IMG/VR virus record: IMGVR_UViG_2639762982_000013 | Coordinates: 1 to 10,043 of that record | Length of the DNA stretch: 10,043 nt | Source of the DNA: a virus | Lineage: Duplodnaviria > Heunggongvirae > Uroviricota > Caudoviricetes | Strand: one strand, 5' to 3' | Part shown: piece after piece, positions 5,170-8,274 of the stretch | How the letters are laid out: every line of letters begins with the position of its first letter | How positions within the stretch are numbered: position 1 is the first letter of the stretch | Notes under the pieces: model-generated | Seen by the model: the letters and a program-made list of their open reading frames with translations, nothing else | What the model was told of the DNA's origin: nothing | Databases searched by the model: none | Made by a program: the position numbers and the translations under genes

Positions 5170-5184
5170 TTACCTTTCGGGTAA
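5170..5184. promoter_or_regulatory. Palindromic site B (TTACC-TTTCG-GGTAA)
   Basis: Perfect 5-bp inverted arms with a 5-nt spacer in the divergent region between the tail fibre gene and the small SOS-box gene. Confidence 0.4.
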
Positions 5185-5241: not shown

Positions 5242-5260
5242 ATTGCATGGAGAAGATAAG

Positions 5261-5518
5261 ATGCAGCAGTATCACTATCCACTGGAAGACGGATTTACCG
5301 AAAGGATTCACACGCCGGGAGGCGTCAGGTCACTGGTGGAGGGATCGCACTTGATGAAATTACTCCGGGATCTCGATAAGGATGGATTTAATGTCGATGG
5401 CCCACTTGCCGAACTGACTGCACTGATTAACTACGTCACCAGCTCACAGATGTCTATGCTGGATCTGCAAACACATCTCGACTATTGTGCCGAACAATTA
5501 CGAAAACAAACCCGGTAA
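5261..5518 (+). CDS. Small SOS-regulated protein, candidate Tum-like antirepressor (homologous to C-terminal domain of the AntA protein at 6669-7325)
   Basis: 85 aa from the ATG at 5261 with SD GGAGAAG; the ORF track extends it to a TTG at 5243. Roughly 40% identity by eye to the last ~80 aa of the 218-aa AntA-domain protein (IH[TS]P[GS]GV…LM.LL..L..DG..V.G..AELT…D.QTH..Y). LexA box immediately upstream. Confidence 0.6.
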   Translation: MQQYHYPLEDGFTERIHTPGGVRSLVEGSHLMKLLRDLDKDGFNVDGPLAELTALINYVTSSQMSMLDLQTHLDYCAEQLRKQTR

Positions 5519-5542: not shown

Positions 5543-6269
5543 ATCGTTTCGCTTTGTGCTCGTCCCAGCACGTTTTGCACCATGCCATTAAGCCATCCGC
5601 ATTTTGATTATTAGGGTAAAAGCTTGTTCGTTTTCTGCGGACATTACAAATTGGGCACCACTTCATATGGCGTGTATTCTTTGGGCCATCGAGACACCTT
5701 GCACACCACTTAGTCAATCCATCTGGATTTTTTGACGATTTCCTGAATTTTTCATATGGTAGGTTTATTCTGCATCGCAAGCACTGCTTGCTACCACTTG
5801 AAACTCTGTTAGCTGATTCTTCTTTTGGCGGCGATACAGAAGGTATTCTTGCTGGCTCTGATACTGCCTGAGGTGCTTTTTTAGATGACTGAGACGATAT
5901 GTCATCACCAGGGAATCTTCCATGATATGCCGGACGCGTTGACACTCCAGGTGGAAGCTCAGCTGTAAACGGCTTTGGCTGAATCAGTTGCCTCTCTTTT
6001 GCTAACTCCTGCTGTTTATAATATGTCTGGATTACCGCACTATCATAAGCAGGAGGTGCGGAAATATTAGGCGCATTACCTCCAGTTTTTTGAAACTGAG
6101 TAGAGGTGTGTTCTATCACCTGTGTACGATTAATCGTTATCTCCCCATCTTCGGTCTTTATCGTTTTGTTATGATTAACGACCGTACGATCAGAGATCTT
6201 AGTCTTGTTCTGGTTGATAACGTAAATAATCACCGCAACCACACCAACAACTATCCAGAAAACTTCCAT
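5541..6269 (-). CDS. Membrane-anchored protein with tandem C4 zinc-ribbon repeats (function unknown)
   Basis: 242 aa. N-terminal TM helix (residues ~4-20) followed by K/R (positive-inside), a Pro/Ser/Gln-rich linker, then two copies of CxxC-x16-DGL-x2-WC-x2-C. SD GAGGA 8 nt upstream of the ATG. Confidence 0.7.
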   Translation of the reverse strand: MEVFWIVVGVVAVIIYVINQNKTKISDRTVVNHNKTIKTEDGEITINRTQVIEHTSTQFQKTGGNAPNISAPPAYDSAVIQTYYKQQELAKERQLIQPKPFTAELPPGVSTRPAYHGRFPGDDISSQSSKKAPQAVSEPARIPSVSPPKEESANRVSSGSKQCLRCRINLPYEKFRKSSKNPDGLTKWCARCLDGPKNTRHMKWCPICNVRRKRTSFYPNNQNADGLMAWCKTCWDEHKAKR

Positions 6270-6289
6270 TGCTTTTCCTCACAATAACA

Positions 6290-6304
6290 TTACCTTAAAG
6301 GTAA
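6290..6304. promoter_or_regulatory. Palindromic site C (TTACC-TTAAA-GGTAA)
   Basis: Perfect palindrome about 10 bp upstream of the SD of the minus-strand zinc-ribbon gene. Core identical to sites A and D. Confidence 0.4.
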
Positions 6305-6382
6305 TATCTTGCTTTCAGGTGATCAAGCGTTAAACGCAATCAACCAAATACGGTTGATTTTAATATTTCTTCGCGTTTATCA

Positions 6383-6397
6383 TTACCTTTGCGGTAA
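6383..6397. promoter_or_regulatory. Palindromic site E (TTACC-TTTGC-GGTAA)
   Basis: Same arms as the other sites, with a spacer like site B. Lies just upstream of the structured leader preceding the AntA gene. Confidence 0.35.
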
Positions 6398-6488
6398 ATT
6401 TACATTGCACTCCTCTTGTGCCATAGTAATCGGGCACTGGCAAAATCCAGTGCCGGGATTGGTCTCCCGGATTACTAAGTGGCGCATA

Positions 6489-6510
6489 CCACGCCAGACG
6501 TGGTTTTTTT
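6489..6510 (+). terminator. Putative intrinsic terminator / attenuator hairpin in the leader of the AntA-like gene
   Basis: CCACG-ccaga-CGTGG followed by T7. Preceded by two GC-rich hairpins (6433-6454 and 6453-6470) that share bases, so alternative pairings are possible. Confidence 0.4.
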
Positions 6511-6668
6511 ATGCGTATAGCACAGTCATGCCAGAATTATGGTGGGCTGAATGGGGGTCCGAAAGGACGCCGGTACCACTTAGGCCGGTAAGACCAACTC
6601 CGTTCAGTTCACCACCATCTGATTGGTCTCAGCGGTGGTGATGTAATTCGCTAAGTGGAGACGCCATC

Positions 6669-7325
6669 ATGAACGCTCAACTCATCCCCGTATTCAACGG
6701 CACTATATCTAACGAAACAGCCCTACTTTGTAATGCCCGCGATCTGCACGCTTTTTTAGGTGTTAAAAAGGTGTTTGCAGCATGGATTACAAATCGCATA
6801 TCAGAATACGAATTCATTGAAAATCAAGACTATATTTTGCTTTCCAATTTGGGAAAGCAAACATCTGGTAGAGGCGGCCACAACCGCAAAGAGTACCACC
6901 TCACCCTTGATACAGCCAAAGAGCTGGCGATGGTCGAGCGTAACGAAAAAGGTCGCCAGGTGCGACGCTACTTCATTGAATGCGAGAAACGTTTAAGACA
7001 ACAAGAAACAAAAGTGGAGAAGGTCTTGTCAGGCTTCATGCCCGCCATTATGGAGGCGATCAAGCTGGAAGACAAAAAAGAATACAGCGCCCCACTGAAG
7101 CCCGGCTACCGCAGCCTGATTCATTCGCCGTCTGGTGTTCTTGGACTGACGGAGAACTCACTGCTGATGAATCTGCTGAACCAGTTACAGGACGACGGGC
7201 ATGACGTATCGGGCGCGGCGGCGGAGCTGACCACCATGTTCTGCTACATCGTCGGTGTGAGCAAATGCCTGCGTGATATCCAGACGCACGCGGAGTACAT
7301 CAGCGACAAAGCAGGATTCTTCTGA
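6669..7325 (+). CDS. Phage antirepressor-like protein, N-terminal AntA-type domain with a C-terminal domain shared with the 5261-5518 protein
   Basis: 218 aa, SD GGAG 8 nt upstream. N-terminal region ([10 protein letters not shown]…[33 protein letters not shown]) matches the AntA/pRha-type antirepressor N-domain pattern. C-terminal ~80 aa is paralogous to the small SOS-box protein. Confidence 0.8.
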
Positions 7326-7391: not shown

Positions 7392-7406
7392 TTACCTTAA
7401 AGGTAA
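7392..7406. promoter_or_regulatory. Palindromic site D (TTACC-TTAAA-GGTAA)
   Basis: Perfect palindrome about 43 bp upstream of the ATG at 7449, the first gene of the low-GC two-gene module. Confidence 0.4.
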
Positions 7407-7448: not shown

Positions 7449-7775
7449 ATGACAAAACTTGGATTCGTGATGAGAGGTCCGGTAAGAAGCGGAACTCATG
7501 CAAAGCGTAGCAAGAGTCGTATTTTTACTGGTAAGGTTGTAGCACGTAAATCAGCTATTGGCTCGTTCAATAGTGAAAATGCGGCATTGCGCCATATTTT
7601 TATCAGCACAAAGCCAAGAGCATCCGCTGATGTGCATACAATGTCTATTCCTATCACAAAGAATATAAAGCGGATAAAAAAGCTCTCATCTGCAGAATCA
7701 AAAGAGATATCTTTCCGCCAGCTTAACTCATTAGAAACGCATATGAAGGAAGAGGAATTCGATGTTTTTGAGTGA
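7449..7775 (+). CDS. Small highly basic protein, candidate antitoxin / partner of the downstream YafO-like protein
   Basis: 108 aa, SD GGAG 8 nt upstream. Very K/R-rich N-terminal two thirds and an acidic C-terminal tail (EEEFDVFE). Overlaps the downstream gene by 14 nt. No recognisable Phd/YefM or other antitoxin fold from sequence. Confidence 0.5.
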   Translation: MTKLGFVMRGPVRSGTHAKRSKSRIFTGKVVARKSAIGSFNSENAALRHIFISTKPRASADVHTMSIPITKNIKRIKKLSSAESKEISFRQLNSLETHMKEEEFDVFE

Positions 7776-8274
7776 GTATAGCGGGAAGGTTATACCTACT
7801 GGTGAGTTTAAAACTGATGACTTTCTGATTTCGCTAAAAGATGCTTTTAAACAACACTGGCGTCATGGTCATCATCCTGATCTGGGAAAAGATACTCTTT
7901 TTGAAAGACCAGACGAAGTATTAGGCTTCCATCTCAGAAAGGTTCATGTCAATATTGGTGAATATGCATCATATTCATACTCATGTACTGAACAGTGTTG
8001 GGATGAGTGGTCATATGGATTGATTGATGAACAAGGAAATTACAGGCCAAAACCAACCAGTAACGCATATCTCATATATGCAGTCAATGAAATAAGAGAT
8101 GCAGCCTTACTAGCTTATTGGGACCCGCCCGCACACACCAAAGCTAACGCAAAAGTTTGGATGGATTCCGTATTGAATTTCACAAAATTATTTCATGAAC
8201 GAACGAATACAGCCCCACTTAGTAGAAATGTTTATCCGTGGGATTATTCGTACAAATCCAAAAAGCCTGCATAG
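7762..8274 (+). CDS. YafO-like toxin-domain protein (putative ribosome-dependent mRNA interferase)
   Basis: 170 aa with a strong SD (AGGAAGAGGA). From memory of E. coli YafO, the motifs align: PDLGKDTLFE / FHLRKVHVNI / AYLIYAV…AALLAYWDPPAHTKA versus YafO PDIFGRDALYD / FERVAHIHLA / AHLVYCQ…AWLLIAILKPEPHKLA. About 40 aa longer than YafO. Local GC is about 38-40% against about 50% in the flanks. Confidence 0.55.
   Translation: MFLSEYSGKVIPTGEFKTDDFLISLKDAFKQHWRHGHHPDLGKDTLFERPDEVLGFHLRKVHVNIGEYASYSYSCTEQCWDEWSYGLIDEQGNYRPKPTSNAYLIYAVNEIRDAALLAYWDPPAHTKANAKVWMDSVLNFTKLFHERTNTAPLSRNVYPWDYSYKSKKPA

Follow-up and report, generated by a model that had tools for sequence, protein, structure and literature searches.

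An IsrK and C4 RNA cassette, probably a P1 immI-type immunity module, ahead of the antirepressor gene of an Escherichia coli prophage

The antA locus

The window (the whole stretch of 10,043 nucleotides analysed here) is the end of a phiV10/TL-2011b-like prophage of E. coli, whose insertion adjoins yfgH/yfgI. Within it, antA, which encodes an AntA/AntB-domain protein of 218 aa, and a gene on the opposite strand diverge from each other, and the 399 bp between them (6270-6668) hold the whole cassette described in this study (Table 1). The first-pass annotation had singled out a structured leader of 365 bp ahead of antA; that length fits neither the gap between the genes nor the transcribed leader, which is about 235 nt. 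When folded in silico, the leader (253 nt) forms a far better structure than its shuffled versions (z = -5.2), and the minimum free energy structure pairs the IsrK loop with C4.

Table 1. Features of the antA locus (positions are those of the window)
Feature	Position	Strand	Evidence or relation
Divergent neighbour gene, 242 aa	5541-6269	-	PHROG 6762, function unknown
Palindrome TTACCTTTGCGGTAA, operator-like, directly next to the isrK promoter -35	6383-6397		Repeated palindrome; position as P1 Oc4
isrK promoter: -35 TTTACA (6399-6404), 17-nt spacer, -10 CATAGT (6422-6427)	6399-6427	+	Consensus scan
IsrK sRNA, a1/b1 leader of immI-type operon	6434-6510	+	RF01394, 67.7 bits (cut-off 50), model positions 1-77 of 77
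Site a1, UUGGUCU, loop of IsrK hairpin 2, core of first 10-mer	6459-6465	+	Perfect complement of a'
Site b1, CUAAGUGG, IsrK linker just 5' of terminator	6475-6482	+	Perfect complement of 6576-6583
Helix bridging the terminator, GCGCAU (6482-6487) with AUGCGU (6511-6516)	6482-6516	+	Covariation
C4 antisense RNA	6535-6619	+	RF01695, 61.2 bits (cut-off 45), full length
b', CCACUUAG, loop of second C4 hairpin	6576-6583	+	Complementary to b1 and b2
a', AGACCAA, single-stranded between second hairpin and 3' arm of outer stem	6591-6597	+	Complementary to a1 and a2
Hairpin displaying a2, CACCACC (6610-6616)/GGUGGUG (6634-6640) plus CUGA/UCAG, loop UUGGUC	6610-6640	+	Covariation
Site a2, UUGGUCU, core of second 10-mer, just 3' of C4	6623-6629	+	Complement of a'
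Site b2, CUAAGUGG (6651-6658), overlapping the antA Shine-Dalgarno GGAG (6657-6660)	6651-6660	+	Complement of b'
antA, antirepressor gene, regulated target	6669-7325	+	Pfam PF08346 AntA, 4.2e-26; PHROG 377 anti-repressor Ant, 3.5e-66

The surrounding genes were also inspected. The product of the divergent gene has, by eye, a hydrophobic N-terminus, and its C-terminus gives weak endonuclease VII and Lar-like matches. An ORF of 91 aa on the plus strand (5243-5518) matches PHROGs 450 and 15539, as does the C-terminal part of AntA; these matches suggest a free-standing duplicate of the Ant C-terminal domain. One of the TTACC-N5-GGTAA palindromes discussed below lies ahead of this ORF. Downstream of antA, a gene pair occupies 7449-8274 on the plus strand. 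Its second member has a weak YafO-toxin match that falls short of the Pfam cut-off, and RefSeq annotates its counterparts in relatives as YafO family toxins. A search of the region for tRNA and tmRNA genes found none. The gap was rejected as protein-coding, with a mechanical ORF (6309-6641) that has no Pfam match, and the ORFs that run across C4 were likewise rejected, with neither frame nor length conserved in relatives.

To place the cassette among its relatives, we gathered homologous loci by two routes, one starting from the AntA protein and the other from a search of IMG/VR with a degenerate IsrK pattern, removed duplicates and aligned the remaining 108 distinct cassettes. Within this set the intramolecular helices are 88.9% paired, against 39-45% when the arms are slid relative to each other, and 25 pairs are changed on both sides, a result matched by none of 500 shuffles. 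The first-pass annotation had made its proposal depend in part on conservation of the hairpins in related elements, and the helices do covary across the 108 distinct cassettes. Cassettes related at 78-100% identity were also found in 465 of 5426 complete E. coli genomes; in 72 of these the identity is 99% or above. None of the 12 records among the matches listed carries an annotated feature at the cassette.

IsrK and its terminator

The 5' part of the cassette belongs to the isrK family, whose experimentally characterised member is the 77-nt sRNA of the Salmonella prophage Gifsy-1 (PMC4825925). The match passes the gathering cut-off over the full length of the model, and the RNA has the two 5' hairpins and the Rho-independent terminator of the family, with compensatory changes. 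In order, it comprises hairpin 1 (6434-6453), hairpin 2 (6454-6469), a linker, and the terminator (6488-6504) followed by U7. All three hairpins had been noticed in the first pass and are present: an 8-bp stem, GGCACTGG/CCAGTGCC, at 6433-6454, a second stem-loop, CCGGG-ATTGGTCT-CCCGG, at 6453-6470, and ACCACG-CCAGA-CGTGGT followed by T7 at 6488-6510. The first two, which had been taken as mutually exclusive, share only 1-2 nt, so they lie side by side and do not exclude each other. In the 108 cassettes, pairing reaches 100% in hairpin 1, where 6 of 7 pairs have changes on both sides, and 96.9% in hairpin 2. The suggestion of a short RNA ending at the T7 tract agrees well with these data, in that 6434-6510 is a full-length Rfam isrK match whose helices covary in 108 relatives. 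Hfq binding and a stable transcript of about 77 nt have been shown for IsrK only in Salmonella (PMC4825925).

A second Rfam family, c4-a1b1 (RF03163), matches at 6421-6473 with 39.9 bits, under its cut-off of 46.7, and overlaps the isrK model that passes. The trait of that family is present all the same, with duplicates of both C4 target sites upstream of C4 and a1 in the loop of hairpin 2. We scored the P1 leader on the same models and obtained 51.0 bits for c4-a1b1, 68.8 for C4 and 35.1 for isrK, the last a full-length match under the cut-off. These scores indicate that IsrK is the a1/b1 leader of an immI-type operon.

Besides the helices of the Rfam isrK model, we observed a further one, absent from that model, that bridges the terminator. 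It is 89.5% paired, against at most 53% when slid, 5 of its 6 pairs are changed on both sides, and its covariation score of 0.54 is reached in 0 of 500 shuffles. This helix spans both the terminator and the U-tract, which implies that it can form only in read-through transcripts.

The C4 RNA

In phage P1, C4 is processed from the transcript of its own target, and its 5' end is made by RNase P. In the window, the structural and complementarity features of the family RF01695 are present: a long outer stem of 17 bp (6540-6556/6598-6614) encloses two hairpins, the first with a GAAA tetraloop (6557-6568) and the second at 6569-6589, and two exposed segments are complementary to two downstream sites, one of them over the antA ribosome binding site (RBS). 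The outer stem is 99.5% paired in the 108 cassettes, with 10 of the 17 pairs changed on both sides. From alignment to the annotated 77-nt C4 of P1 (NC_005856), the mature RNA is predicted to extend from 6541 to 6616. A tRNA-like 3' CCA was considered for this RNA and dropped, since alignment with P1 makes ...CACC (6616) the 3' end and only 73 of the 108 cassettes have an A at position 6617.

Promoter and operator-like palindromes

The first-pass annotation had placed a sigma-70-like promoter in front of these hairpins, right after a palindrome that it called E and that is probably the one at 6383-6397. A promoter is indeed there, with its hexamers shifted by 1-2 nt from those proposed, and is best read as TTTACA-17-CATAGT. 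Across 122 distinct cassettes, TTTACA/TTGACA-like hexamers and TATATT/CATAGT/TATAGT hexamers each keep a constant distance to the first position of the Rfam model, and this fixed spacing supports a transcription start near 6434. A promoter scan of 6510-6540 found no site, so that a separate C4 promoter was rejected; the result is consistent with co-transcription of C4 and its target.

The palindrome TTACC-N5-GGTAA occurs four times in the window (5170-5184, 6290-6304, 6383-6397 and 7392-7406), with 0.03 copies expected. Every copy is intergenic and ahead of a gene, and one adjoins the -35 of the isrK promoter, placed as is the C1 operator Oc4 that overlaps the -35 of P2c4 in P1. Judged by their positions, the four copies are likely candidates for the operators of one phage repressor encoded outside the window.

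Two target sites, each present in three copies

We name the sites a and b as in the P1 GenBank record; the APSE-7 record uses the two letters reversed. The repeated 10-mer GATTGGTCTC reported in the first pass at 6457 and 6621 is confirmed, with exactly two copies (whole-window shuffles expect 0.01 matches, and any exact 10-mer repeat appears in 2.5% of shuffles of the 286-nt region), and it is explained as two copies of C4 target site a. Absent from that annotation were C4 (6535-6619) and a second repeat, CTAAGTGG, which is found at 6475 and 6651 and whose reverse complement lies at 6576 within C4. The 3' end of b2 lies 10 nt before the antA ATG, and in relatives this distance is usually 6-11 nt. 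The local hybrid energies of C4 are equal for the IsrK copies and the mRNA copies, with -9.2 kcal/mol for a' with a1 and with a2, and -12.6 and -12.4 kcal/mol for b' with the b sites. RNAcofold gave no intermolecular gain for C4 with IsrK or with the mRNA; loop-loop contacts lie outside its model.

The second 10-mer had also been reported to lie inside a 7-bp-stem hairpin just before the antA Shine-Dalgarno sequence. This hairpin (a 7-bp lower stem CACCACC/GGTGGTG, extended by CUGA/UCAG) is real, and its loop holds the 10-mer copy. It is 90.1% paired, with 9 of 11 pairs changed on both sides, a value reached in 0 of 500 shuffles. Its 5' arm shares 6610-6614 (CACCA) with the C4 outer stem, so that folding of C4 and display of a2 compete. 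Both helices covary, and in the transcript before processing they form a true case of mutually exclusive pairing.

The two sites follow the same pattern among the relatives. For site a, the three copies (a1, a' and a2) are complementary to one another in about 103 of the 108 cassettes, across 8 a-types. Pairing between a1 and a' stands at 99.3%, with 3 variable positions changed on both sides, and pairing between a' and a2 at 99.1%, with 3 covarying positions; the few exceptions look like recombinants. The b sites are more variable, and the MAFFT alignment is out of register for them in many rows, so that the 55-73% pairing read from it is understated and a register-free search is the better test. 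In that search, a run of 7 or more contiguous pairs with the b1 and b2 of the same cassette is found for 94% of 65 distinct C4 loop types, against only 19-29% when the sites are taken from other cassettes. There are dozens of b-types, and the three copies of each site type change together. The a-types and b-types reassort independently: the window and cassette L004 have the same b and a different a, and the same holds for L081 and L097.

The b-site 8-mer CUAAGUGG is found five times in all, against 0.23 expected, and three of the five are in the cassette. The other two are on the minus strand (5706-5713 and 8215-8222), with no a-site near either, and one of them is inside the mRNA of the divergent gene; they could be chance occurrences or extra C4 targets.

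A proposed mechanism and its alternatives

The family identity of the two RNAs, their structures, their covariation and the three-way complementarity of both sites are the results of the present analysis, and work on P1, P7 and Gifsy-1 suggests how such parts would operate through processing, translational repression and IsrK-driven activation. We consider that the leader before antA is the P1-immI-type RNA immunity module of this prophage, made of IsrK, C4 and matching target sites, with a probability of about 0.8. A single promoter, probably under an operator-bound phage repressor, would start transcription near 6434. Most transcripts would end at the terminator and yield the 77-nt IsrK, and some would read through into C4 and antA. 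C4 would then be cut out of the read-through RNA, and its a' (AGACCAA) and b' (CCACUUAG) segments would pair with a2 (6623-6629) and b2 (6651-6658). Such pairing would cover the antA Shine-Dalgarno sequence, no antirepressor would be made, and lysogeny would be protected. IsrK, which carries exact copies of the sites (a1 and b1), would be a target mimic competing for C4, both in cis, as part of the precursor, and in trans, in its short terminated form; abundant IsrK would relieve the block.

The steps of this scheme do not carry the same weight. Repression of antA translation by C4 is, by analogy, very probable. The window has no icd, and its equivalent of orf45 is only Met-Val-Gly-stop, so that C4 should act directly on the antA RBS; for the same reason, with no orf45 or icd equivalent in the window, details may differ from the known systems. 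That terminated IsrK acts as a target mimic relieving C4 repression is a step that we favour only slightly. Weinberg et al. (2010, PMC2864571; Additional file 1) attribute to Citron and Schuster (1990) the proposal that a1/b1 compete with a2/b2 for C4 and in this way free ant expression. In Gifsy-1, however, activation has been explained by orf45 and alternative mRNA folds and not by titration of free C4 (PMC4825925), and the downstream RNA, when co-expressed, did not antagonise IsrK (PMC4825925), which counts against the mimic model.

The main rival to the mimic step is an autoregulation of the kind known from phage P4, in which C4 bound to nascent a1/b1 would promote termination at the IsrK terminator, like CI RNA with seqA and seqC in P4, and the upstream sites would be a feedback sensor and not a decoy; the two could coexist. 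Site b1 ends 5 nt before the terminator stem, so bound C4 could alter its folding, a covarying helix bridges the terminator, and the authors of the Gifsy-1 study, who regard P4 seqA as structurally homologous to IsrK, themselves mention such a mechanism as possible (PMC4825925). We nevertheless find such feedback unlikely, given that the Gifsy-1 downstream RNA, when constitutively expressed, enhanced rather than suppressed the IsrK phenotype (PMC4825925), and that no alternative antiterminator helix was found covarying in the cassettes. The Gifsy-1 mechanism taken literally, with IsrK acting in trans to open the RBS of a small upstream ORF whose translation is coupled to that of the antirepressor, agrees with the RNA families and the gene order, which are as at isrK-orf45-anrP. 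It would, however, require an ORF that the window hardly provides: the one that begins with the conserved AUG at the 5' end of C4 reads Met-Val-Gly-stop here, its length in relatives ranging from 3 to over 54 codons, and the other ORF across C4 (6528-6641, 37 codons) has its frame open in only 50 of the 108 cassettes. With b2 directly overlapping the antA Shine-Dalgarno sequence as well, this mechanism is very improbable for the window.

The interpretation put forward in the first pass was that of a transcription attenuator or processive-antitermination target, with mutually exclusive leader hairpins deciding the fate of the terminator at 6488-6510. There is a real terminator between the promoter and antA, and downstream expression must depend on read-through, as in Gifsy-1, but the exclusive pairings proposed for it are not supported. 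Hairpins 1 and 2 coexist side by side, and both are in the covarying structure of the family. The long-range complementarity of GTAATCGGG with CCCGGATTAC does exist, although it needs a 1-nt bulge, and as an anti-pairing (GTAAT/ATTAC) it falls in the -10 region, upstream of the predicted transcription start, and is kept in only 32 of the 122 distinct cassettes, all of them close relatives and without compensatory change. No leader peptide or nut/put-like element was noticed, albeit without a dedicated search, and the repeats are explained by complementarity to C4. On these comparative data the attenuator model appears largely refuted, and we give it very little credence. Control of a phage antirepressor by antisense RNA is classic and already known, and the antA leader is a copy of that system and not a new attenuator; its cassette is real, strongly conserved and functional-looking, and a member of long-known families.

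The immI-type reading can be extended to the variety of sites among the relatives. It is possible, though we hold it only tentatively, that the cassettes make up a combinatorial immunity code, with at least 8 a-types and dozens of b-types, in which IsrK is a dedicated, co-transcribed mimic and read-through sets the stoichiometry. If this were true, recombination between IsrK, C4 and the ant leader would reassort the types and give rise to antirepressor cross-immunity groups among enterobacterial prophages, and the read-through ratio, perhaps tuned by the bridging helix, would determine the relative amounts of mimic, antisense RNA and target. In the papers on isrK/C4 systems that were consulted we found no account of the scale of such a code or of the bridging helix. 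The set of 108 cassettes shows cleanly how the three copies of each address site co-evolve, and this co-evolution could help to predict which prophages are cross-immune at the level of the antirepressor. The practical value is modest: annotation based on Rfam would add two ncRNAs and explain a long "empty" gap in E. coli genomes.

Comparison with known systems

Cassettes with sRNA-Xcc1 (RF02221), found ahead of other AntA-family genes, also consist of a terminated leader RNA and a C4-like RNA, and similar to the window they have a site overlapping the Shine-Dalgarno sequence whose changes are matched in the RNA loop and in the leader copy. They belong to a different Rfam family, their leader RNA has no Rfam family, and blastn finds no similarity to the leader in the window. 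We observed an sRNA-Xcc1 cassette about 130 nt upstream of AntA homologues in L022, L032, L037, L056 and other loci, and by eye the Shine-Dalgarno site, the leader copy and the RNA loop change together between these loci. The immunity system of P4 (CI RNA, seqA and seqC) likewise has, by description, a processed small RNA in the leader and complementary sites upstream and downstream. CI terminates the transcription of replication genes prematurely, and the system does not switch an antirepressor.

The isrK-orf45(STnc1160)-anrP region of Gifsy-1 (Hershko-Shalev et al. 2016, PMC4825925) shares with the window a full-length isrK member, the terminator, read-through into a C4-type RNA and an antirepressor gene, and an IsrK loop that pairs downstream through G28 and G31. 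In Gifsy-1 these two bases pair with C162 and C159 of the downstream RNA, respectively (PMC4825925), and they correspond to site a1. The read-through isrK-orf45-anrP RNA is translationally silent and is activated more than 100-fold by the short IsrK in trans (PMC4825925), and STnc1160 is a processed RNA from this read-through transcript (PMC4825925). The window differs in its orf45 equivalent, which is cut down to 3 codons and has a variable length in relatives, in its upstream neighbour, which is the divergent PHROG 6762 gene and not a Q-like antiterminator as in Gifsy-1, and in the sequences of the sites.

For the immI operon of P1 and P7 (Oc4, P1c4/P2c4, a1, b1, c4, a2, b2, icd and ant1/2), order and spacing are as in the window. 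The annotated P1 sequence has a C1 operator at the -35, the promoters, a1, b1, the 77-nt C4, a2, b2 and the RBS; C4 and a2 are three nt apart, and the end of b2 is 10 nt from the icd start, as it is from the antA start in the window. P1 carries icd between C4 and ant, a small ORF whose RBS is the target of C4 and whose translation ant expression requires, whereas the window is without any ORF between 6620 and 6669, so that b2 overlaps the antA Shine-Dalgarno sequence itself. The a and b sequences differ from those of P1, and the specificity therefore differs; the operator position is taken by the TTACC-N5-GGTAA palindrome in the window and by the annotated C1 operator (Oc4) in P1, and the host element is an integrated podovirus-like prophage here and a plasmid prophage in P1. 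Common to both are the C4 fold, the two leader hairpins with a terminator-like hairpin, an operator, putative in the window, adjoining the -35 and the two-part address with its upstream duplicate, and in both the target is an antirepressor, which in the window is the AntA/AntB-domain protein.
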